A stretch of DNA of 20,000 nucleotides from an uncultured virus (IMG/VR IMGVR_UViG_3300025845_000008) (Duplodnaviria; Heunggongvirae; Uroviricota; Caudoviricetes): positions 55,473-75,472 of the IMG/VR virus record IMGVR_UViG_3300025845_000008, one strand, 5' to 3'. Every line of letters starts with the position of its first letter. Position 1 is the first letter of the stretch. A program made the translations under genes and the position numbers. Under the pieces are notes generated by a model that saw nothing but the letters and a program-made list of their open reading frames with translations, did not search any database and was not told where the DNA came from. Below are positions 1,650 through 19,516 of the stretch, one piece after another.

Positions 1650-2690
1650 GTGAAGAGAATTTTAGTAACTGACACCCACTTGGGTCATAAGAAGGCAAAT
1701 CAGAGATATCTTGATTTAACCCTTGAATTGTTTGAAGACATAGGTAACTATGCAGAAGAGCATGACATTAAAGAGTTAATACACCTTGGTGATTTCTTCG
1801 ATAATCGTAGAAATATGTCATTGATGACGCTTCATTACGCACGTAGAATTGGTCTAAACTTGCGTCATAGGTTTGACAGGTCTTATTTTATTTTAGGTAA
1901 TCACGATCTTTATTATAAAGACAGATATTTGCCCAATTCCCATGAAATTTTCTACTCCATGCCCCATATTCAAGTGGTAGATGAACTGACTGAGGTTGGT
2001 AATATGCTCCTTGTACCTTGGATTGTAGAGGGTTCTGATTGGATTGACCCTGTAGAATTCTTAAAACCTCTTCATGAAACCACCAAAGAATATTGTCTTG
2101 GTCATTGGGAAATCAATGGTGCCAAGATGAACGTATCAGGTCGTGTGGCAGAGGGAAGTAAGTTCAGTTGTACCGATTTTAGAAAGTTTAAGAAGACCTT
2201 TTCTGGTCACTTTCATACCCCCGGCACATATCCCATGAATATTCAGTACTTAGGTGCATCACACCACATGGATTTTAACGATTCAGGTCCGAGGGGGTGG
2301 TATGTATTTGATGATGAGGATGGTTCCCTTGAGTTCATTCGTTGGGATAAATCCCCGAAGTATATCAAATGGAGAGCATTACCTGACAATATCGTTCAGG
2401 GTGAATTTACCGACCAAATTGTTAAGATTGTCTTTGATGAGGATTATGGCACAACAATAAATAACCAAATAATTTCAGATGTTTATGGTACCAATCCCCT
2501 ACAGGTATTCACTGAGTACAAGTTTACGAAAGTGACCACAGATGATACAGTAGAGGAAGAATTGGAATTGTCTGGTCCTGTAGAGGTCCATAAGGGATTT
2601 GTTGAGAAGTCAGAGGTTCCTAAACACCTTAGTAAAAAGATTCTATCTAAGTTTATCGACCAAATTTATGAGGAAGTCAATGCCCAGTAG
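1650..2690 (+). CDS. 47: Recombination nuclease subunit, Mre11/SbcD-like (T4 gp47)
   Basis: Metallophosphoesterase motifs DTHLG, GDFFD, GNHD, GHWE, SGHFH; 346 aa; GTG start with GGAG RBS; lies upstream of gp46. Confidence 0.92.
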   Translation: MKRILVTDTHLGHKKANQRYLDLTLELFEDIGNYAEEHDIKELIHLGDFFDNRRNMSLMTLHYARRIGLNLRHRFDRSYFILGNHDLYYKDRYLPNSHEIFYSMPHIQVVDELTEVGNMLLVPWIVEGSDWIDPVEFLKPLHETTKEYCLGHWEINGAKMNVSGRVAEGSKFSCTDFRKFKKTFSGHFHTPGTYPMNIQYLGASHHMDFNDSGPRGWYVFDDEDGSLEFIRWDKSPKYIKWRALPDNIVQGEFTDQIVKIVFDEDYGTTINNQIISDVYGTNPLQVFTEYKFTKVTTDDTVEEELELSGPVEVHKGFVEKSEVPKHLSKKILSKFIDQIYEEVNAQ

Positions 2691-3309
2691 AATGATACAC
2701 GATATTTTACATCAAATTCTTGAGACAAGTGATGTGGAAATGCGTCACGAATCACAACGAACAACACGTACAAGTGGTGATTATTTTCAAAATTTGTATA
2801 TGGGTGCATTTAGACCCCAATTGATATTGAGAAGGGTGGTCAGACATAGTGAAATTAAAAACCTTCCCGCAGATGTGTACACGGAATTGTTAGATTTGTT
2901 TCAAAGAATGGTCAGAACTGGCGAACCAGTTAATATCAGTAGAAGATTCCGTGATGTGAGACTTTCAAGAGCGGAAATGTTACCAAACCAACATTCATTC
3001 GAATATGATATACGACTTGAATTTGTGTTGAGTGATTTGGATGAAGACCATTGGCGTAATGAATTAGAAGAAGACTCACGTTATGTGCCGGATTGGGGTG
3101 GCCGTAGACGTAGCGCACAAGTTCAACTTGACGGTCAGGGTAGGATACACCCACGTTATTTTGGTGAATCAACAGGTGGTATTGAACCTGTTTATAATAC
3201 TAAGCACCGCTACCGTGCCGCGTGGCCCGATGATGTTGAGATTTTCGGTCAAAAACCTGTAAAAAAGAAACAAGAGAAACACTTTGAGGATGACCTGTTT
3301 GAATTATGA
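2680..3309 (+). CDS. Hypothetical Arg-rich, Lys-poor protein ending HFEDDLFEL
   Basis: ATG at 2680 with AGGA RBS overlaps the end of gp47 and is more plausible than 2599; ATGA coupling to the next gene. Confidence 0.75.
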   Translation: MPSRMIHDILHQILETSDVEMRHESQRTTRTSGDYFQNLYMGAFRPQLILRRVVRHSEIKNLPADVYTELLDLFQRMVRTGEPVNISRRFRDVRLSRAEMLPNQHSFEYDIRLEFVLSDLDEDHWRNELEEDSRYVPDWGGRRRSAQVQLDGQGRIHPRYFGESTGGIEPVYNTKHRYRAAWPDDVEIFGQKPVKKKQEKHFEDDLFEL

Positions 3310-3881
3310 AAAGATATGTATACAGAAATCACCAACAATGTACATGTCCTACCAGACGTGAGATACGGGAAGCAGTTCATAATGATATGAACGAAAGACC
3401 ACAACCGATGAGTCAGATTGTGGTTCCAGTTATACCGAGTATGCCACCCGCTAGTCTTGAACATATGAGATATGATGTTGGTGACTCGTTCAGGATGACA
3501 AGATATATTTTTGAAACAGTGTGTTTCACAACTGCTATATGGGTAGAAGAACATGTAGAGAACGGTGTTTCATGTGGTCATTACACTACACACCACAGTT
3601 ACTTTCAGGTTCCCGAAGGGGTGGAGTTACCACAAACAGAGTTGTTGAATGAAGGTCATTCTTTTCATGACGAACATATTGAAGTATACCGAGGGTTGGA
3701 TGGCGAAGCATATTATAGATACAGAATGTTTGAACTGGAAAGACGATTAAGAGAACTGGAAGATACAAGAGTTATACTTCCTAGAGAAGATATTGATGAT
3801 ATACACGCAGGTAGAGCGATTATTGATAATCAACCTGTACGTCTGGAGTATTTTGAAGATGATGAAATTTTTAACATCTAA
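3306..3881 (+). CDS. Hypothetical protein with a single Lys in 191 aa, ending YFEDDEIFNI
   Basis: ORF track; ATGA overlap with the upstream gene. Confidence 0.75.
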   Translation: MKRYVYRNHQQCTCPTRREIREAVHNDMNERPQPMSQIVVPVIPSMPPASLEHMRYDVGDSFRMTRYIFETVCFTTAIWVEEHVENGVSCGHYTTHHSYFQVPEGVELPQTELLNEGHSFHDEHIEVYRGLDGEAYYRYRMFELERRLRELEDTRVILPREDIDDIHAGRAIIDNQPVRLEYFEDDEIFNI

Positions 3882-4065
3882 AAGATGGCAAACAATTAAA
3901 GATTGGTGTTGGTGGAAATTTGTGATTAAGGAAGATGAATTTCATCACAGTTTGAGTATAGACATGATTAAGGTCTTAAATGGTAAGACGACATTAGATG
4001 CAGAGTTAAAACGTATCGAGCCTCTTCGTGAGAGGGCGCATAAATTAGATTTAAAATGGGGTTAA
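3859..4065 (+). CDS. Hypothetical protein
   Basis: ATG at 3859/3862 after GGAG; fills the gap between neighbours. Confidence 0.6.
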   Translation: MMKFLTSKRWQTIKDWCWWKFVIKEDEFHHSLSIDMIKVLNGKTTLDAELKRIEPLRERAHKLDLKWG

Positions 4066-4067
4066 TA

Positions 4068-4406
4068 ATGACAGATAATGTGAGTTGTGACGTATGTGGT
4101 GCCACAGAAGACATTGAGTGTGAGATTCTATTGAAAGGTGAACAGGTAGATAGAATTTATCACCTATGTCCTGAACATTGGATTAAGGTTTACAGGAAAA
4201 CTTTGGAAGATTTTTTGGAAGCAAACGAGTATAAATGTAATTCGTATATTAAAATGGCGGTGGACAAGTTGATTTCTGATGCAGTAACCAGTACAAAAAT
4301 TAAGCAATTTTCCGATGAAGATGGTTTGGTTGATGTTGCACGTCTTGACCCACAAGAACTAAGAAGATTGCGTCCATATGAAATTGATGATGAGGATGAT
4401 ATATGA
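4068..4406 (+). CDS. Hypothetical protein with N-terminal CxxC...CxxH putative Zn site
   Basis: CDVC...LCPEH; acidic tail; ATG at 4068 just after the previous stop. Confidence 0.7.
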   Translation: MTDNVSCDVCGATEDIECEILLKGEQVDRIYHLCPEHWIKVYRKTLEDFLEANEYKCNSYIKMAVDKLISDAVTSTKIKQFSDEDGLVDVARLDPQELRRLRPYEIDDEDDI

Positions 4407-4906
4407 GTAATTATCATAAACATGCAATAGAGGAAATGAAGAGGATAGGATTCAGGTTTGTTGAAGATGGCTATCCAATTCAAGACCCAAATGAAGAATT
4501 TGATGTGAATGCGGAAATGGCTATGTGTGTCTTGGATATTCTTGATGTGTTTGGTAAACAAGGTCATTCAGGTATGTCAGCGTCATATTGTTTGCAGATT
4601 CTTGAGAAGGTCATGAAGTTTGAGCCTATAACACCCCTAACAGGTGATGATGATGAGTGGAATTGTATTGCTGATGAACGTACCAATGGTGAAGAGATTT
4701 ATCAAAATAAGCGATGTTCACACGTTTTCAAAAGGAACGGACAAGCGTATGATATAGATGGTAAGGTGTTTTGGGAATGGTATACTGATGGGGTAACTGG
4801 CGAGAGACATAAAACTTATTATACCTGTTCAGAGAGTCATGTAGACATAGAGTTTCCGTATACACCAACAAGAGTTGAAGAATATATGGAGAGTGGTTGT
4901 GAGTGA
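4403..4906 (+). CDS. Conserved phage hypothetical protein (GHSGxSA family)
   Basis: Motifs QGHSGMSA, PITPLTGDDDEW and YQNKRCSHVFK, recalled from a widespread uncharacterised phage family. Confidence 0.75.
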   Translation: MSNYHKHAIEEMKRIGFRFVEDGYPIQDPNEEFDVNAEMAMCVLDILDVFGKQGHSGMSASYCLQILEKVMKFEPITPLTGDDDEWNCIADERTNGEEIYQNKRCSHVFKRNGQAYDIDGKVFWEWYTDGVTGERHKTYYTCSESHVDIEFPYTPTRVEEYMESGCE

Positions 4907-5090
4907 AGATGTTCAAGTATTTAAAATATGTGACAACGAAGGATCAACAGTTTATCTTGAGCATGACGAAAATGTTATGAGAATACTGCAAGGTTTTGTT
5001 GACTGGGCCGAACCAAAACAAAAAATGATCGTTGAGGTTGTCGTGGTATCCAGAGAAGATTTGAATAAATTGCCAAGGAGTATGATCTAA
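4899..5090 (+). CDS. Small hypothetical protein
   Basis: GTG at 4899 after GGAG; its TAA overlaps the gp46 ATG. Confidence 0.6.
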   Translation: MSEDVQVFKICDNEGSTVYLEHDENVMRILQGFVDWAEPKQKMIVEVVVVSREDLNKLPRSMI

Positions 5091-7306
5091 TGGGCAAAAT
5101 AAACGTTGATAAGGTTGAATTAAAAAATTTCCTGTCATATGGGAATCAGTGGACAGTTTTTGATTTCCAGACAGGAATTAACGTTGTTCTTGGTCACGAT
5201 AAAGATAAAGAACGATCAAATGGTGCTGGTAAGACCAGTTTTCTAGAGGCTATTCCCTTTGCTCTGTTTGGTCAGATTAATAAAGGTATATCATTACCGA
5301 AAATTGTGAATTGGCGAAACGGTAAACAATGTGAGGTAAAACTTCACTTCCGTAAGGATGGTGTGTCTTACATGATCCACCGTGGAATTAAGCCCGGAAT
5401 CTTAACATTGTTTAAAGATGGTGTTGAGGTTCCAAAATTATCCGATAAGAGGTTGTTTCAGGCAGAACTTGAAGATGATTTGATTGGTATGGACTTTAAA
5501 GCCGCACAAGCACTCTTGTTTCAGAATGCTAATAACATGGTTTCGATGTTTAATACTCCAAAGGCAGACAAACGTAGATTTGTTGAGAAGTTCTTTAATC
5601 TTGAGATTTATTCTAAGGCAACAGAGGTCACCAATAAGAAGCTGAAAGGTGTTGATGACAAGATTTCAGAGATTAGGGTAGATGTGTCATATAAACAGAA
5701 GTCAATAGATGACCTCACCGCTAAGATAGAGTCATTTGTGGCACCTGATTTGGATGTATATCAAGGTAAAGTGGTATCTATTCAAACATTATATGACACA
5801 TTCACGGAAAATAATCCAGACCTTGAAGAACGTTTGAAAAATTTAAACAATTTATGCACAGAGTTGACCAAGAAGCGAGATGAACTGAATACTAAGGTTT
5901 CAAAAACCAAAGAGAAGCTTGGTGATGTGCGTCTTGAGGTTCGAGCATTAGAAACGGAAGCAACAACGAAACGTCAGCGTATAGAAAAGATCGGTGATTT
6001 ATCGGAACAGACAGATAAACTTATTAGGGTTAAGAGTGAGTTAATTAAGCTTTCAGACCTTAATAGAGAACCCACTAAAACTGAAATTGATAATCTTCTT
6101 GATGAATTGGGTAAACAAAAACAACTTCTAACGGAATGTAATACTTACATTCGCCAATACAAGAATGAGATTGAAAGCTTTGAAAATATGGAGACAACAT
6201 CTGAATCGGTATGTCCCACTTGTTTTCAAGAAGTTGATCATGAACATATTAAAAACCATATCGAGTCACAAGTTGCGGGACTGAAACAAGAATTAGTTAT
6301 TAAAAATGGTCATTTGTCTAACATTGAAGAGAATATCATCGAACTTAGCCACAAACACAAAGAAAAAAGTGATCTTCTTGATGGTATAAACTATAAGATT
6401 GAACAAAAAAATAAGTTAGAACAAGCACTTGCAAAACTATCAGGTGTTGAAGAAAAAGAGATAGAACTATCAGAGTTAAAAGTTCGTATTGATGAGATTG
6501 ACACAGTTATTCTACCAGAGTATCGTGATAAAGAATCTGCGTTGGTTGCTCAGATTGAAGCGGAAGATCTGGAATATAAGGATTCATTACTTGAAGTTAA
6601 CAATAACAATGCACTTATTGATAAATGTAAAGACACTATAAGAGAACGAGATAAGTTGTTGAATGAACTTGATACTGCTACGAGTATCCTTGATAATCAA
6701 AAGGAAATCCATGACAGGTTGATTGGTGAAAATGAAGCAAATATTGCGACTAAAGTAAAACTTGAGTCCGAGATTGTATCTACCCAAGCCGAAGTTAGAA
6801 AATTAGAAATAATGAAGGATTACCTAGAGCATATCAAGTTCACCTTAAAAGACGAGAATGTTAAACAATATGCTATTAGTAGTATTATCCCGTACTTACA
6901 GCAACAGATGAACCATTATCTCTCCGAGACAGGGAATTACTACGTTGAGTTGGATAACTGGTTGGACGGAACGATTAAAGGTTTTGGTGTCGGTGAATGT
7001 GACTTTGGAAATATGTCAGGTGGAGAGGGTAAGTCTATTGACCTCGCGTTAAAATTCGCTATGATGGATGTTGCACGTAGACAAGCTGGATCATATCTTG
7101 ATATTCTAGTACTAGATGAACTATTGGACAGTTCTATAGATAGTCATGGTTTAGATAAAATGATGGATATTGTCAGAATGAAACAAAGAGAAGACAACTT
7201 GAAGGTCTTTATCGTCTCTCATAGAGAGGAAGTTGCATCTTTTGATGCCGACAGAACATTTGTTGTGGAAAAAGAGCAAGGAATGTCCAATATTAGGGAA
7301 TTATAA
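5090..7306 (+). CDS. 46: Recombination ATPase, Rad50/SbcC-like (T4 gp46)
   Basis: KNFLSYGN, Walker A SNGAGKTS, long coiled coil with CPTC zinc hook, signature MSGGE, Walker B LVLDE-LLDSSID, H-loop VSH. Confidence 0.95.
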   Translation: MGKINVDKVELKNFLSYGNQWTVFDFQTGINVVLGHDKDKERSNGAGKTSFLEAIPFALFGQINKGISLPKIVNWRNGKQCEVKLHFRKDGVSYMIHRGIKPGILTLFKDGVEVPKLSDKRLFQAELEDDLIGMDFKAAQALLFQNANNMVSMFNTPKADKRRFVEKFFNLEIYSKATEVTNKKLKGVDDKISEIRVDVSYKQKSIDDLTAKIESFVAPDLDVYQGKVVSIQTLYDTFTENNPDLEERLKNLNNLCTELTKKRDELNTKVSKTKEKLGDVRLEVRALETEATTKRQRIEKIGDLSEQTDKLIRVKSELIKLSDLNREPTKTEIDNLLDELGKQKQLLTECNTYIRQYKNEIESFENMETTSESVCPTCFQEVDHEHIKNHIESQVAGLKQELVIKNGHLSNIEENIIELSHKHKEKSDLLDGINYKIEQKNKLEQALAKLSGVEEKEIELSELKVRIDEIDTVILPEYRDKESALVAQIEAEDLEYKDSLLEVNNNNALIDKCKDTIRERDKLLNELDTATSILDNQKEIHDRLIGENEANIATKVKLESEIVSTQAEVRKLEIMKDYLEHIKFTLKDENVKQYAISSIIPYLQQQMNHYLSETGNYYVELDNWLDGTIKGFGVGECDFGNMSGGEGKSIDLALKFAMMDVARRQAGSYLDILVLDELLDSSIDSHGLDKMMDIVRMKQREDNLKVFIVSHREEVASFDADRTFVVEKEQGMSNIREL

Positions 7307-10270: not shown

Positions 10271-10457
10271 TCGAAAATGTAATCACTTATGGTTGGAATA
10301 TCGTAGAAAGTGGGTTGAATATATTCCTCATGAACAGAATCCAAAGTTTAACCGTGAAGGTGCTTATATATTATCGCATGTATATTGCGCGGAATGTGGT
10401 GAGGTTAGAGAGGTTGTGAATGATGGAAACCGGATTAAATTCAGAACAATTCCATAA
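10248..10457 (+). CDS. Small hypothetical protein, putative Zn-binding (CxH...CxxC)
   Basis: CNHLW...CAECG; AGGA RBS. Confidence 0.65.
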   Translation: MMWKRLFNRKCNHLWLEYRRKWVEYIPHEQNPKFNREGAYILSHVYCAECGEVREVVNDGNRIKFRTIP

Positions 10458-10950
10458 TCTAATAGTAAAAAGTAGTGGTAATACTATGATTTGGGCACCA
10501 AGACAGTCAGGTAAAACTACGGCTTTGGTTAGAGAGTTTTTGACTACACCCAATTCCCTTTTTTATACTGTAAATTATGGACAGAAAAGGAGTGTGGAAC
10601 GAATTTGTTATGAGTTGGATGTGCCATTCAGACGAAACGATATACGTATTATGAATGAAGAATCTATAAGATCTTATAACACAAGAACATTTTTTATAGA
10701 CGAAATTGATCATTATGATGGAGATTTATATAGGTTATTGGTACCCATAAGCTTGACGAGTACGAGAATGATTGCTATATCTACTCCTCATCGACCAAGG
10801 TTGAAGGGAACTTACGCCAGTATATTTGAAAGTGAGTATAAATTAAACCATGAAGGTCTGACCGATTGGAGATGCCCAGAATCGGATATAGTTATAACGA
10901 TAAATGTGAATAACCATTTCGAAAGAGAAGGAGAATTATTTAGAATATGA
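10420..10950 (+). CDS. Stand-alone P-loop ATPase resembling the terminase large-subunit ATPase domain
   Basis: Walker A APRQSGKTT, Walker B FFIDE, motif III ISTP; only 176 aa; ends HFEREGELFRI. Confidence 0.75.
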   Translation: MMETGLNSEQFHNLIVKSSGNTMIWAPRQSGKTTALVREFLTTPNSLFYTVNYGQKRSVERICYELDVPFRRNDIRIMNEESIRSYNTRTFFIDEIDHYDGDLYRLLVPISLTSTRMIAISTPHRPRLKGTYASIFESEYKLNHEGLTDWRCPESDIVITINVNNHFEREGELFRI

Positions 10951-15223: not shown

Positions 15224-15259
15224 AAATTTCATTGTTAATTGAAACGAAAGGGAATTATT

Positions 15260-17503
15260 ATGGTTTGGTCCACAAATATTGAGAATGAAAGAACTTTTGA
15301 TAATAATTTTATTGGTCGATTGTCAGGTGATCAACGACAAGTATCAAGACCTGATCATTTCCGTGTAGAGGTGGCTGATGCCCCTGTAGATGATCGTCTT
15401 ATCAATGATAATATGTTGATTTTTGGGCGTGATCTTGTCGAAGAATCCCGTCAAGGTCATCTTGATCCGGTTATCGGTCGTGATGATGAAATCCGCCGTA
15501 TGATTCGCATTCTATCTCGCAAAACAAAAAACAACCCTGTCCTCATTGGTGAGCCGGGTGTTGGTAAAACTTCCGTTGTTGAGGGTCTGGCACAACGTAT
15601 TGTTTCTGGTGATGTTCCTGATGGTCTAAAAGAAAAGGTTATTTATTCTTTAGATCTTGGTTCTCTCATGGCAGGAACTAAACACCAAGGTGAACTCGAG
15701 GAACGGGTGAAATTTGTCCTTGATGCGGTTCGTGAGCGTGAGGGCAAAGTCATGTTGTTTATTGATGAAATTCACAACATGGTTGGTATGGGTTCCTCTA
15801 ATGGCGTTGACTTTGGTAACATGCTGAAACCCATGCTGGCTCGTGGCGAACTCCGTTGTATTGGCGCTACTACTTTGGATGAGTATCGTACCGGGGTAGA
15901 AAAAGACGCCGCTTTATCTAGGCGTTTTCAGACTATTTTGGTCGATCAGCCTAATGTCGATGATACTGTTAGCATTCTTCGGGGGTTGAAAGAGACTTAT
16001 GAGATTTATCATGGGGTCACGGTTCGAGATAACGCTTTGATTGCGGCCGCCAAACTAAGCCATCGATACATTAGTGATCGTTTTCTCCCTGATAAAGCTA
16101 TTGATCTTGTGGATGAGGCATGTGCCCAAGTTCGAACTGAACTTGATTCCTCTCCAGCAGAACTTGATGGTGTGACTCGTAGAATTCAACAACTTACCAT
16201 CGAAGAAAAATCTTTAATGAAAGAAGACGATGGTTTGTCTGTTGTTCGTCTTGGCAAAATTCGTGAAGAAAGAGATCTTTTGTTAATCGAACAAAAAATT
16301 CTTCAAGATCAATGGAGTGAAGAAAAAGATAACATTAAAAATCTGGTCGAACTTCGCTCTAAATTGGAAACCGCTCGTAAAGAGTTGGAAACTTGTGAAC
16401 GTCTTAATCAATTAGATCGAGCCAGTGAATTGAAGTATGAAATTATTGTTCAGATAGAATTCGAACTACACAACTACATCAAAAACATCGGTGATATGAG
16501 TATTCTTCATGATTCTATTGATGAGGCTGAAATTGCTAAAGTAATTAGCCGTTGGACTGGAATTCCTGTAGATCGTATGACTGAGGATCAGAGTTCTAAA
16601 ATCCTCAATCTCGATGTTGAATTACATAAACGTCTCGTGGGTCAGGATGAAGCTGTGCAATTGGTTAGTGAAGCTATGATTCGCAGTCGTAGTGGGATTA
16701 AAGACCCTAACCGTCCCATTGGTTCTTTCATTTTTCTTGGACCAACAGGGGTCGGTAAGACTGAATTGGCTAAAGCACTTACCGAAGTTATGTTCGATAC
16801 TGAGCAGAATATCATCCGTATTGATATGTCTGAGTATATGGAAAAACATAGTGTTTCCCGTATGATTGGTGCCCCTCCGGGTTACGTCGGATTTGATGAT
16901 GGGGGTCAATTGACTGAGAAGGTTCGTAGAAAACCGTTCAGTGTCATTCTTTTTGATGAAATTGAAAAGGCTCACCCTGATGTTTTTAATGTTCTTCTTC
17001 AAGTTCTGGATGATGGTCGTATTACTGATGGTCAAGGTCGCACTGTTGATTTTAAAAATACTGTTATTATCATGACAAGCAATATTGGAAGTCAACATTT
17101 GCTTACAGGAATTGACGGTTGGGGTGAGATTAAAGATTCTACTCGTAATCGGGTATTTGAAGACCTTAAAAGGGGGTTTCGACCTGAATTTCTGAACCGT
17201 GTTGATGATATTATTTTGTTCAAACCTTTAACTAAAGATAATGTCAAGATTATCGTTGGATTTCTTCTGAGTGATATTCGTAAGCGTTTGGAAGATCGAC
17301 AAATCAAACTGGAAATCACCGATGAGGCTAAAAATTATGTAGCAGATGTTGCGTATGACCCTATCTACGGGGCAAGACCTCTCAAACGGTATTTGAGTGG
17401 CACTCTCGAAACTCAGATCGGTAAAGCCCTTCTTAGTGGCCAAATTAAAAACGGTGATACTATCACTGTAACCGCTGATCAGAACGGTCTGATTGTTCAA
17501 TAA
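15260..17503 (+). CDS. clpB: ClpB/Hsp104-type AAA+ disaggregase lacking the Clp N-terminal domain
   Basis: [11 protein letters not shown]1 GEPGVGKT / [16 protein letters not shown], long M-domain coiled coil, NBD2 [37 protein letters not shown]; no IGF loop. ATG 15260 has an AAGGGA RBS. Confidence 0.95.
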
Positions 17504-17818: not shown

Positions 17819-18301
17819 ATGGTAGGAATTAGAAGTCGTGGAATGGGCGGGGGTCAATGGACTGACCATGAAGATTTGGATCTATCGAAACCTTTGACAA
17901 TTATTTGTCATGAAGGGAATCTTCAAGTTGACGTAACTGATGCAATTGAAATCAATTTTGATTACACTCGTTATCATGGTAATCGTGTTGTAAAAATTGA
18001 TCCTGTGGCGAATGCATGGATTGAATATATACTTGGGTATCAGATTGAGCGTGATCTACAGCCACAAGACCGTCCAGACTCTATGGCACATGTTATTGGT
18101 TTATGTGACCTTCCGATTAAGTTGATGCAGAAGGCTGGTCAGGGGTTGCCAATTTTCATTAGAGAACCAGAAGTATCACTTCATCCAAGTCAACAGAGAC
18201 GTGTTTCGGACTTTTTATCCGCAATTTCTCAACATACTGATAATGCAACTGGAAGTTTCACTGAACTACCAAGAGGCTATAAAAATGGTTGGAGTGTATA
18301 A
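17819..18301 (+). CDS. Protein containing an isolated ABC-ATPase Walker-B/D-loop segment
   Basis: IFIREPEVSLHPSQQ matches the hhhEEPExxLHPxxQ motif of AAA_15/AAA_21/OLD-type ATPases; no Walker A. Confidence 0.6.
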   Translation: MVGIRSRGMGGGQWTDHEDLDLSKPLTIICHEGNLQVDVTDAIEINFDYTRYHGNRVVKIDPVANAWIEYILGYQIERDLQPQDRPDSMAHVIGLCDLPIKLMQKAGQGLPIFIREPEVSLHPSQQRRVSDFLSAISQHTDNATGSFTELPRGYKNGWSV

Positions 18302-18661: not shown

Positions 18662-19516
18662 ATGCAGTTTCTTAATCAATTGAATCCTTTTTACCCTGTA
18701 ATCCGAAATAAACTTTTCACCCCTTTCACCTATGAAGGTGACGAAACTCCTACAGATTTGTATGTTGACCGTGATGCACTGTTGAATGGTGAAAACGGTA
18801 AAGTTCTTGGTACTGTTGGTCCTCACTACAAACTTATGTTGAACGAAGAGGTTTTTGATATTTTCTCAGAAGCCTTTGCCGATCTTCCGATTGAATCAGT
18901 TTGTGACCACCTGAACTGGAAACAGAACCGTTGGCAACGTGATTTTATCCTCGATGGTGATCAGTTCAATATGTCAATTGGCGATGAAATTATTAAAACC
19001 AAGGTTTCAATTTTCAACGGGTACGATGGTAAATCCAGTGTAGGTTTCACTGTTGCCGCATACCGTGATAACGGAAATGTTACTTTCTTGAACAATATGT
19101 TCACTCAGACCTATTCGCACGTTCAACGCGGTCTGGTTGCCCGTATCCGTGAAGACTTTGCAGCAAAACTTGAACTTTTCCGTCAAACCGCTGAAATGTT
19201 TCGCCGTTTTGATCAAGAGGTGTTTACGGGTGAGCAATTTGAGTCTTTTGTTAATGGCCTGGTCGATGAAAGTGGTGGTCGCAATGGCTATTTGTCCGAA
19301 AATCAGGCGCGGTTAATTATCAACTCTTATAATCAACTATTTACTCGTCTCGGAGTTCGACAAACGCGCTTCGGTGCATATACGGTTCTTTCGGCAATCG
19401 CATCCGAACGACCGGGACGCGGTAACAGTTCTCCTATTTTCACGGCCGCTCACAAACGTATCGAAAAAGTTGTCGATGATTTCTTTTCTGATGCCGGAGA
19501 TTTGTTCATCATCTAA
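18662..19516 (+). CDS. DUF932/DUF945-like protein
   Basis: VLGTVGPHYKLMLNEEVF and IFNGYDGKSS resemble the family motifs (LG.V...Y....N; NS.DG.S); AGGAG RBS; ends FFSDAGDLFII. Confidence 0.7.
   Translation: MQFLNQLNPFYPVIRNKLFTPFTYEGDETPTDLYVDRDALLNGENGKVLGTVGPHYKLMLNEEVFDIFSEAFADLPIESVCDHLNWKQNRWQRDFILDGDQFNMSIGDEIIKTKVSIFNGYDGKSSVGFTVAAYRDNGNVTFLNNMFTQTYSHVQRGLVARIREDFAAKLELFRQTAEMFRRFDQEVFTGEQFESFVNGLVDESGGRNGYLSENQARLIINSYNQLFTRLGVRQTRFGAYTVLSAIASERPGRGNSSPIFTAAHKRIEKVVDDFFSDAGDLFII

Follow-up and report, generated by a model that had tools for sequence, protein, structure and literature searches.

Lysine is selectively depleted from the larger proteins that share a C-terminal tail in a large, AT-rich uncultured phage

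The stretch of DNA analysed here (hereafter the window) is 20,000 nt long and comes from an uncultured virus (positions 55,473 to 75,472 of IMG/VR record IMGVR_UViG_3300025845_000008). It carries four open reading frames (ORFs) whose products end in the same short tail and contain little lysine and much arginine. An earlier reading made from the sequence alone had proposed that the coincidence of tail and lysine depletion marks a real functional class. We find that the tailed proteins of the window are a class kept apart by selection, and that neither chance nor GC (guanine plus cytosine) content produces it. The proposal stands for the larger tailed proteins; the tail alone does not predict lysine content, as tailed proteins shorter than 130 amino acids are normal in this respect. 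The four ORFs and their tails are the following.

2680..3309, plus strand: ORF 2680, 209 amino acids, Lys-poor and Arg-rich, no assigned family
3280..3306, plus strand: tail of ORF 2680, HFEDDLFEL
3306..3881, plus strand: ORF 3306, 191 amino acids, orphan family, with a 189-residue lysine desert
3849..3878, plus strand: tail of ORF 3306, YFEDDEIFNI
10420..10950, plus strand: ORF 10420, small stand-alone P-loop ATPase of 176 amino acids (5 Lys, 16 Arg)
10915..10947, plus strand: tail of ORF 10420, HFEREGELFRI
18662..19516, plus strand: ORF 18662, 284 amino acids, member of a DUF932 (PF06067) clade (10 Lys, 19 Arg)
19478..19513, plus strand: tail of ORF 18662, DFFSDAGDLFII

The lysine counts made by hand in the sequence-only reading were exact for all four proteins. 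The product of ORF 3306 has a single Lys (residue 2) and 19 Arg, that of ORF 2680 has 7 Lys and 25 Arg, giving a K/(K+R) of 0.22, and the values for ORFs 10420 and 18662 are those listed above. The description of these proteins as Arg-rich among Lys-rich neighbours also held on recounting: lysine makes up 76 of 738 residues in the gp46-like ATPase, 13 of 102 in ORF 14467 and 15 of 90 in ORF 18371. A lysine desert is defined as a continuous Lys-free region covering at least 50% of a protein that has 150 or more amino acids (criterion as quoted in excerpts of PMC13696103). By this definition ORFs 3306 and 2680 encode deserts, with Lys-free runs of 189 of 191 residues (99%) and 114 of 209 residues (114 of 213, or 54%, if ORF 2680 is called from an upstream ATG), and ORFs 10420 and 18662 do not, with runs of 72 of 176 (41%) and 95 of 284 residues (33%). 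Deserts are encoded by 5 of the 151 phage ORFs of at least 150 amino acids. At the genome-wide lysine content of 7.2%, a run as long as that of ORF 3306 has a chance of about 7e-7. The lysines left in ORF 2680 stand at residues 60, 175, 192, 195, 196, 197 and 200, that is, two in the first 190 residues and five just before the tail, within the 18 residues that precede the end of the protein.

Several records cover the phage. The window forms the final 20 kb of a 75-kb viral record (G000), which is contained at 99.99% identity within a 163.7-kb record (G001); another record (G003) overlaps the end of G001 and contributes a further 52 kb, so that together they span approximately 216 kb of one phage, which served for comparison. 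The same phage is also represented by a contig of 221 kb, found in a metagenome scan with the ORF 3306 alignment. This uncultured phage has a genome of approximately 220 kb and a GC content of 36%. It carries T4-like portal, capsid, prohead protease and terminase genes, as well as genes for gp46/gp47-like nucleases, UvsX, a gp32-like protein, a clamp loader, RNase H and a family B DNA polymerase. The phage stands well apart from all cultured phages: in a set of 50,697 phage records, no encoded protein is more than 31% identical to its UvsX, and the whole window has no DNA match by megablast. An Rfam scan of the window returned no family. ORFs were called mechanically as the longest non-overlapping frames, a procedure that included a few spurious antisense ORFs and dropped the tRNA region.

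Among the 33 plus-strand ORFs of the window (median K/(K+R) 0.60), the four tailed ORFs rank 1, 2, 3 and 7 for K/(K+R), and among the 286 ORFs of at least 60 amino acids in the 216 kb they rank 2, 6, 7 and 15. Their values range from 0.05 to 0.34, compared with a genome median of 0.64 and a 5th percentile of 0.35. When calculated for every ORF, therefore, K/(K+R) places the tailed window proteins far outside the genome distribution, and the claim of unusual depletion survives. All six tailed ORFs of the phage differ from the 280 others (Mann-Whitney p=0.002), and an Arg content above 6% together with K/(K+R) below 0.4, a threshold chosen post hoc, is seen in 4 of 6 tailed and 11 of 280 untailed ORFs (Fisher p=7e-5).

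Base composition does not account for the depletion, because three indicators of it are ordinary. The GC content at third codon positions (GC3) is 0.27-0.38 in the tailed window ORFs compared with a median of 0.29 (p=0.78); their Arg codon usage is like that of the rest of the genome; and FYMIN/GAP, an index of other AT- and GC-driven residues, is unremarkable in the tailed ORFs and does not correlate with K/(K+R). The usage of AAA relative to AAG is ordinary as well. In the tailed window proteins Lys occurs at 0.39 times and Arg at 2.29 times the genome frequency. As the sum of both residues is nearly constant (12.1% in the tailed proteins and 11.2% in the genome), lysine has been exchanged for arginine at constant charge. 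Levels of His, Gln, Phe and Glu are elevated too, and neither Glu nor Gln is depleted. The four proteins are not paralogues, as the best pairwise E-value (E) among them is 0.64.

The tail has the consensus [H/Y/F]F-x(2-5)-[D/E][L/I]F-x-[L/I/V/M] and lies at, or one residue from, the C-terminus. In each tailed protein it is acidic and holds two aromatic residues. The core [DE][LI]Fx[LIVM], with one optional additional residue, terminates 6 of the 286 ORFs, where 0.10 would be expected from its internal frequency. A looser core terminates 19 of 455 ORFs in three related phages (expected 1.25), and one of these 19, on the minus strand, is probably spurious. At least 10 kinds of protein bear the tail, and most of these are small and have no assigned function. 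In the P-loop family, L173 and F174 of the tail do not vary among the 21 aligned sequences (24-46% identity) and are as strongly conserved as the Walker A and B residues. An AlphaFold2 (AF2) model of the DUF932 protein has a predicted local distance difference test (pLDDT) value of 90, and the last block of residues, after the final helix, has a pLDDT of 44; the tail is therefore predicted to be disordered. Because of its above-chance occurrence, the invariant Leu and Phe in the P-loop family and the predicted disorder in the DUF932 model, we regard the tail as a functional linear motif, conserved and disordered.

Homologues of ORF 18662 permit a comparison of tailed and untailed forms of one protein. 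ORF 18662 itself has no Pfam match at E<=0.01 and a weak match to TIGR03299 (E=0.008); a precomputed PF06067 assignment is attached to homologues at 45-84% identity and to every more distant one (25-34%), and ORF 18662 forms one tree with these proteins. The sequence-only reading would have failed if untagged homologues were equally poor in lysine. They are rich in it: K/(K+R) has a median of 0.76 (0.38-0.85) in 19 untailed members and 0.32 (0.21-0.55) in 34 tailed members, at similar FYMIN/GAP values (1.66 in tailed and 1.76 in untailed members). Lys amounts to 3.6% in tailed and 9.2% in untailed proteins and Arg to 7.1% and 3.5%, in a count in which one tailed sequence was misfiled among the untailed. 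At 17 columns where the untailed proteins mostly have Lys, the tailed ones have Lys in 32% and Arg in 25% of cases, and the rest are mostly Asn, Gln and Ala. The tailed proteins group into a single clade (support 92/79) in a maximum-likelihood tree of 55 DUF932 sequences. Along this tree, K/(K+R) is 0.71-0.85 outside the clade, 0.38-0.58 in the nearest untailed proteins, 0.39-0.55 in the basal tailed proteins and 0.21-0.43 in the crown. With the DUF932 model, Foldseek found nothing in PDB at E<=0.001, and the best hit of a wide VIA search (Z 7.3) was within the noise range of the tool. Neither tblastn of ORF 18662 against the 50,697 phage records nor a profile search of the genome contigs with the DUF932 alignment returned a relative.

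The matches of ORF 10420, among them terminase-large-subunit-like ones, are all weak (AAA_22/AAA_14 and phrog_2/7579). An exhaustive search for homologues of this P-loop protein gave 26 representatives, 21 of them with the Leu-Phe tail, and K/(K+R) is at most 0.41 in 20 of the 21 tailed members and 0.55 in the exception. The Walker A Lys, present in 21 of 21 sequences, is the sole invariant Lys of the family. A 62% GC contig returned by a viral scan with the P-loop alignment (G007) proved to be unrelated.

ORFs 2680 and 3306 belong to no family in Pfam, PHROG, NCBIfam or PADLOC, and neither has a confident fold. For ORF 3306, both an atlas model (pLDDT 0.35) and an AF2 model built with four sequences (pLDDT 36.5) are uninformative. 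In viral contigs, the relatives of ORF 2680 are identical copies only. The family of ORF 3306 has four members, each with 1-3 Lys and 16-21 Arg; no Lys position is conserved, and the tail is present in four of four. Of the 14 Lys residues in ORF 2680 and these four proteins, nine fall in the last 20 or so residues. Tailed ORFs lie directly 3′ of gp47 in all three related phages, and syntenic orthologues of ORF 3306 occupy this position in a relative with 30% GC (G006; 4 Lys, 13 Arg) and in another (G008; 6 Lys, 12 Arg). ORF 3306 had no tblastn match in the 50,697 phage records. Besides the 221-kb contig of the same phage, the metagenome scan with its alignment returned a 1.9-kb fragment and one false match, a bacterial contig with 57% GC (L047).

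Across genomes, depletion accompanies the tail in the larger proteins. In the three related phages, tailed ORFs of at least 130 amino acids have a median K/(K+R) of 0.24 (n=9, derived from only four families) and the 192 untailed ORFs of this size one of 0.65 (p=4e-6); no tailed protein exceeds 11 Lys, whatever its length. The link between tail and lysine loss is hence firm across homologues and only partial within genomes. We conclude that selection acts on the protein, either because lysine is harmful or because arginine is needed. We favour the former, because charge is conserved, nearly every basic site has been switched, and many former Lys columns of DUF932 now hold Asn, Gln or Ala.

In the explanation that we prefer, the tail would be a short disordered docking peptide that this phage lineage has put on many unrelated accessory proteins and that plugs them into one shared partner. 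On the larger tailed proteins, of four families, selection has stripped Lys from the body of the protein and substituted Arg, keeping the total basic charge. The lysines that survive are those that are functionally fixed, such as the Walker A Lys, or that lie right beside the tail. Once the protein is docked, a lysine-directed covalent reaction would attack any exposed Lys; the most plausible such reaction is ubiquitin-like conjugation, whose source might be a defence system of the host or an E1-like/JAB pair of the phage. The protein bodies would in this way become lysine deserts, as in eukaryotic ubiquitin systems. Lysine loss across four mutually unrelated proteins, lasting in diverged homologues in AT-rich phages, supports this explanation. 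By analogy with those systems, escape from lysine-directed covalent modification is thus a possible, still tentative, reason for the avoidance of lysine.

Several observations weigh against such an escape. The tailed ORFs of less than 130 amino acids in the three related phages are not depleted (median K/(K+R) 0.66, n=10, compared with 0.60 for untailed ORFs; p=0.38), and two tailed ORFs of the present phage, of 60 and 100 amino acids, have normal Lys. K/(K+R) reaches 0.55 in the P-loop orthologue of the 30% GC relative, and P0042 and P0032 have the same value. In DUF932, the tree indicates that the tail and the loss of lysine represent a single evolutionary transition, which leaves about four independent cases rather than dozens. 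Untailed Lys-poor, Arg-rich ORFs also occur, including one in the window (17819-18301), one in a related phage (G008 41797-42264) and a 186-residue ORF with 2 Lys and 13 Arg elsewhere in the phage (L032:14957-15517). Among the candidate conjugation components, the JAB protein has a tail-like end and is Lys-rich (22 Lys, 7 Arg), no E2 or ubiquitin-like family was detected by Pfam among the 227 ORFs scanned (28 + 107 + 92), and the E1-like/JAB pair could equally function in sulfur transfer.

Small tailed proteins at G006 3515-3778 and G008 55019-55303 contain ...KLGLKEAKDFVDS... and ...GFGLRSSLDYISE..., respectively, stretches that we take to resemble the C-terminal domain of ribosomal protein L7/L12. 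Untailed Lys-poor ORFs of the phage include the following.

17819..18301, plus strand: untailed Lys-poor neighbour, 160 amino acids (5 Lys, 10 Arg), two genes upstream of the DUF932 gene
L032:14641-14955 and L032:14957-15517 (G003 34641-35517): two untailed Lys-poor ORFs just after the genes for ClpP and a phosphoesterase

The second of the latter pair (G003 34957-35517) is the 186-residue ORF mentioned above. The first encodes 104 very acidic amino acids with no Lys and 2 Arg; the two add untagged examples of lysine deserts. Residues 95-140 of ORF 17819 have weak similarity (PADLOC E 2e-4 to 8e-3; Pfam AAA_15 E 0.006) to the C-terminal ATPase segment of the defence proteins AriA, PtuA, GajA and Old. 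The matched stretch contains ...IFIREPEVSLHP..., with an Arg at the position where the motif presumably normally holds the Walker B Asp. ORF 17819 may derive from a defence ATPase as a fragment, or mimic one as a decoy.

The phage offers several candidate readers of the tail, namely Hsp20, ClpP, a ClpB-type AAA+ protein and the ThiF-type E1-like/JAB pair.

L012:8075-8530: Hsp20, with ...RLEI as its own end
L032:13268-13840: a true ClpP (E 4e-47), present alongside the T4-type prohead protease
15239-17503 of the window: ClpB-type two-ring AAA+ protein (TIGR03346, 1078 bits, model positions 158-851), without the N-domain
L013:12932-13522: ThiF-type E1-like protein, 196 amino acids, adjoining the JAB gene (the pair spans G001 152932-154626)
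L013:13760-14626: JAB peptidase, 288 amino acids, with a long acidic C-terminal extension ending ...FDDKFDYFKLL, which is tag-like

The ClpB-type protein, ClpP and Hsp20 constitute a proteostasis set of the phage's own. Were the tail a C-terminal degron of the ssrA type, a Clp unfoldase that hands substrate to ClpP would be expected; the ClpB-type protein lacks the N-domain, and no ClpP-docking tripeptide was seen in it on inspection by eye against ClpA and ClpC loops. The PADLOC matches of the E1-like protein are all to the E1 part of E1-E2 models of cyclic-oligonucleotide-based anti-phage signalling systems (CBASS; best E 1e-16). Of the full set of E1, E2, ubiquitin-like protein and JAB that characterizes Bil, Bub, CBASS Cap2/Cap3 and PRTRC-type systems, only the E1-like and JAB proteins were found. 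Matches to the PRTRC ThiF and PRTRC A models were below the cut-offs, and in PMC7466150 DUF932 and PRTRC cassettes are found on separate elements.

The sliding clamp was considered as a further reader. The phage encodes a clamp (L013:10147-10884, 245 amino acids), whose atlas model has template-modelling (TM) scores of 0.73-0.76 to PCNA and gp45 clusters, and the clamp loader genes gp44 and gp62 adjoin it; BLASTP of this protein against T4 gp45 gave no significant alignment. The DNA polymerase of the phage (G003, approximately 17.4-20.1 kb, a 920-amino-acid open frame) ends in ...QAFNAFFG, which is like T4 gp43 and is not the tag. In T4 itself (NC_000866), gp43 ends in ...SLDFLFG, gp33 in ...TLDFLL and gp55 in ...SLDFLYEAND. 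Two other ORFs of the phage have ends of this kind, one of 249 amino acids (G001 48395-49144, ...LSDFFV; ...LTDFFG in the G006 orthologue) and one of 66 (G003 25444-25644, ...SLSFFND), and gp43/gp55-type ends may be the real clamp-binding code of the phage. Because the polymerase end is of the T4 type and the clamp probably has its own code, different from the tag, the clamp is a less likely reader of the tail. For a tailed ORF of 60 amino acids, a role as gp33 analogue is suggested only by its position beside the gp32-like gene; BLASTP against T4 gp33 gave no significant alignment.

In a more specific form of the proposed escape, the tail would be the handle of a lysine-directed conjugation pathway that operates during infection, run either by the phage E1-like/JAB pair or by a ubiquitin-like defence of the host. 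The large tailed proteins would then be adaptors, or would be joined through their C-termini, and would be lysine deserts to avoid self- or cross-conjugation. We consider this specific form unlikely.

It is somewhat less doubtful that arginine is wanted for itself and that the loss of lysine is a side effect. The guanidinium groups might make contact with nucleic acid, with the protein's own acidic Phe-rich tail or with a partner that is acidic or aromatic, or they might promote multivalent assembly. The 2.3-fold enrichment of Arg, the raised His, Gln, Phe and Glu, the acidic, doubly aromatic tail on every tailed protein and the lack of a confident fold in ORFs 2680 and 3306 are all in keeping with this idea. 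However, the K+R total is unchanged, which argues for replacement rather than gain, and the 19 Arg and single Lys of ORF 3306 would demand arginine specifically at nearly every basic site. The well-folded DUF932 and P-loop proteins have shifted alike, and the tailed members of DUF932 often have Asn, Gln or Ala, instead of Arg, at the 17 former Lys columns. A need for arginine is therefore a rather improbable primary cause.

The destination of the proteins might instead penalize lysine, if the tail sorted them for head packaging and ejection, or for export, and if passage through a channel or exposure outside the cell (to alkaline pH, Lys-specific proteases or chemical damage) selected against it. 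A negatively charged residue and then hydrophobic ones at the very end of the protein characterize some secretion signals, and the tail may resemble these. Some fibre-like virion proteins are also very Lys-poor, for example that encoded at G001 93801-96560 (1.4% Lys). Nevertheless, virion proteins in general do not share the bias, as the ORFs of the structural block are ordinary (median K/(K+R) 0.60, n=47). The small tailed proteins are not Lys-poor, the P-loop ATPase has no obvious use outside the cell, and no signal peptides or processing sites were seen. We regard selection by destination as unlikely.

The sequence-only reading had also offered an explanation at the level of codons, in which a low number of AAA and AAG codons permits synthesis while PrrC- or PARIS-type systems cleave the tRNA-Lys of the host. 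The features that bear on it are these.

1650..2690, plus strand: gp47/SbcD-like nuclease subunit, Lys-rich (24 Lys, 15 Arg)
5090..7306, plus strand: gp46/SbcC-like ATPase, Lys-rich (76 Lys, 30 Arg; 738 amino acids)
1585-1642 of the window: strong terminator-like hairpin (14 pairs, then a T run), 3′ of a tail-fibre-like ORF
L011:15180-18946 and L012:851-5397: tRNA array with 21 tRNA genes, beginning approximately 200 bases past the end of the window
L033:10606-11736 and L032:7662-8684: RtcB and an RNA ligase, elsewhere in the genome

The 21 tRNA genes, among them those for tRNA-Lys(UUU), tRNA-Glu(UUC) and tRNA-Gln(UUG), together with RtcB and the RNA ligase, are a tRNA supply and repair kit, which suggests that attack on tRNA has been a pressure on this lineage; the tailed proteins all have 11 or fewer Lys codons, and a weak match links ORF 17819 to the C-terminal ATPase segment of AriA, PtuA and GajA. 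Transcript and coupling speak differently. The ATG of ORF 2680 overlaps the end of gp47, with GAGGA 5-10 nt upstream, and the start of ORF 3306 overlaps the stop of ORF 2680 (ATGA), an arrangement that couples both ORFs translationally to the upstream cistrons. No terminator was found on the plus strand beyond the 1585-1642 hairpin as far as 5200 (1650 to 5200), and the gp46-like gene shares this terminator-free stretch with ORFs 2680 and 3306, which thus lie between two Lys-rich cistrons. Moreover, codon 2 of ORF 3306 is a Lys codon and no family is Lys-free, the tRNA-repair enzymes are themselves Lys-rich (26 Lys in RtcB, 32 in the RNA ligase), Glu and Gln are not depleted, the choice between AAA and AAG is ordinary, and the link with a protein tail is left unexplained. 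With a tRNA-Lys of the phage's own in addition, escape from tRNA-Lys cleavage is disfavoured and, in our view, highly improbable.

Equally remote is a neutral legacy, in which the families came from a GC-richer donor with an Arg-rich norm and have yet to re-equilibrate. In its favour, the four ORFs occupy variable accessory regions beside an anti-defence Tad3 homologue, and ORFs 2680 and 18662 have a slightly raised GC content (0.40 and 0.42). Against it, neither GC3 nor the choice of Arg codons departs from the genome, FYMIN/GAP is unremarkable in the phage and does not differ between tailed and untailed DUF932, the bias lasts in homologues down to 25-45% identity, including the ORF 3306 orthologue of the 30% GC relative, and the change from Lys to Arg consists of single transitions, where drift back would be expected under AT pressure.

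The remaining features of the phage are listed here.

4403-4906 of the window: Tad3 (Thoeris inhibitor) homologue (PF25185, E 2e-35), between gp47 and gp46 and beside ORFs 2680 and 3306
3793-4065 of the window: overlapping ORF in another frame, over the end of ORF 3306, with C-terminus ...LRERAHKLDLKWG
L010:1-1071 (G001 80001-81071): Cys-rich repeat ORF, 356 amino acids, 1 Lys
L012:1562-2473, L031:10802-11323, L031:16332-17294 and L010:4469-11524: possible modification genes
L014:2260-3099: helicase-like gene (ResIII/DEAD), interrupted by a Hint/intein domain

The Tad3 homologue marks the gap between gp47 and gp46 as an island of anti-defence and accessory genes. The C-terminus of the overlapping ORF at 3793-4065 is conserved in a 1.9-kb relative (L046), and this ORF is probably a real gene with a later start. 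A promoter-like site overlaps the 1585-1642 hairpin, just upstream of gp47. The C-terminal two-thirds of the Cys-rich ORF consists of Cys-rich six-residue repeats (CTCNCNYS and CICDCNH types). The possible modification genes encode an APS kinase and a sulfotransferase, a Mom-family protein, a QueC-like fragment, three radical-SAM-like ORFs, an aminotransferase and a glycosyltransferase, a set that suggests an unusual modification of DNA or glycan, possibly sulfation. Several records of the phage terminate within approximately 100 bases of one T-rich spot near the end of G001.

What makes the pattern informative is that the genome is AT-rich and Lys-rich, yet four unrelated families exclude Lys over long divergence. 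The conserved, putative docking tail provides a handle for finding the machinery involved. If the tail does serve as a conjugation handle, the large tailed proteins would be a phage counterpart of lysine-free ubiquitin-ligase receptors, and would represent the first lysine avoidance in a bacterial virus that is not attributable to GC content. The observations bear on whether phages shield selected proteins from lysine-directed tagging, and on the purpose of a private docking code with many clients in large uncultured phages. Should the cause prove to be a requirement for arginine or sorting, the case would still be one of clean selection at the level of composition, tied to a linear motif.

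Full-text searches of openly accessible literature returned no description of the present tail or of Lys-poor tailed phage proteins. Lysine deserts and shared docking tails are each known, and their combination in an AT-rich phage was not found in the literature searched.

Of the known systems, the small heat-shock proteins carry a C-terminal I-x-I motif that docks into a groove of the alpha-crystallin domain. The tail likewise ends in hydrophobic-x-hydrophobic, and the Hsp20 of the phage ends in ...RLEI, a resemblance of pattern only, which offers no reason for the loss of lysine. The clients of T4 gp45 share with the tailed proteins a short hydrophobic and acidic Phe-containing peptide at or near the C-terminus, which is common to unrelated proteins and tolerates a few extra residues behind it. 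In contrast to T4, the DNA polymerase of the present phage lacks the tag and the tailed proteins are not recognizable replication or transcription factors; T4 clients, moreover, are not Lys-poor (judged by eye from the gp33 sequence only).

Toxins that pass through the endoplasmic reticulum have Lys-poor catalytic chains, which the excerpts of PMC13696103 read as an escape from lysine-directed tagging. There, as proposed here, scarcity of lysine is interpreted as escape from tagging after relocation; the toxins act in eukaryotic cells with known ubiquitin machinery, whereas the present proteins are intracellular phage accessory proteins. For bacteria and phages, the same excerpts treat lysine avoidance as an adaptation that is still an open, GC-confounded hypothesis (PMC13696103), and they stress this confound for the Mycobacterium phages in a Pup-linked claim that covers Actinobacteria and these phages (PMC10665810, PMC10169902, bioRxiv 10.1101/2023.01.18.524605). 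Unlike the Mycobacterium phages, the present genome has 36% GC, so this confound does not apply. Ubiquitin-like defences of bacterial hosts (PMC10557695, PMC11601603) are a possible source of conjugation.

The closest comparison is with lysine deserts, which, according to the excerpts of PMC13696103, protect components of the ubiquitin system. Unlike those proteins, ORFs 10420 and 18662 are lysine-depleted without being deserts, and here no lysine-directed ligase is linked to the proteins. In both cases, however, long Lys-free stretches (here those of ORFs 3306 and 2680) leave the remaining lysines clustered at one end, the proteins appear to act through a docking element, and selection, rather than chance, maintains the pattern.

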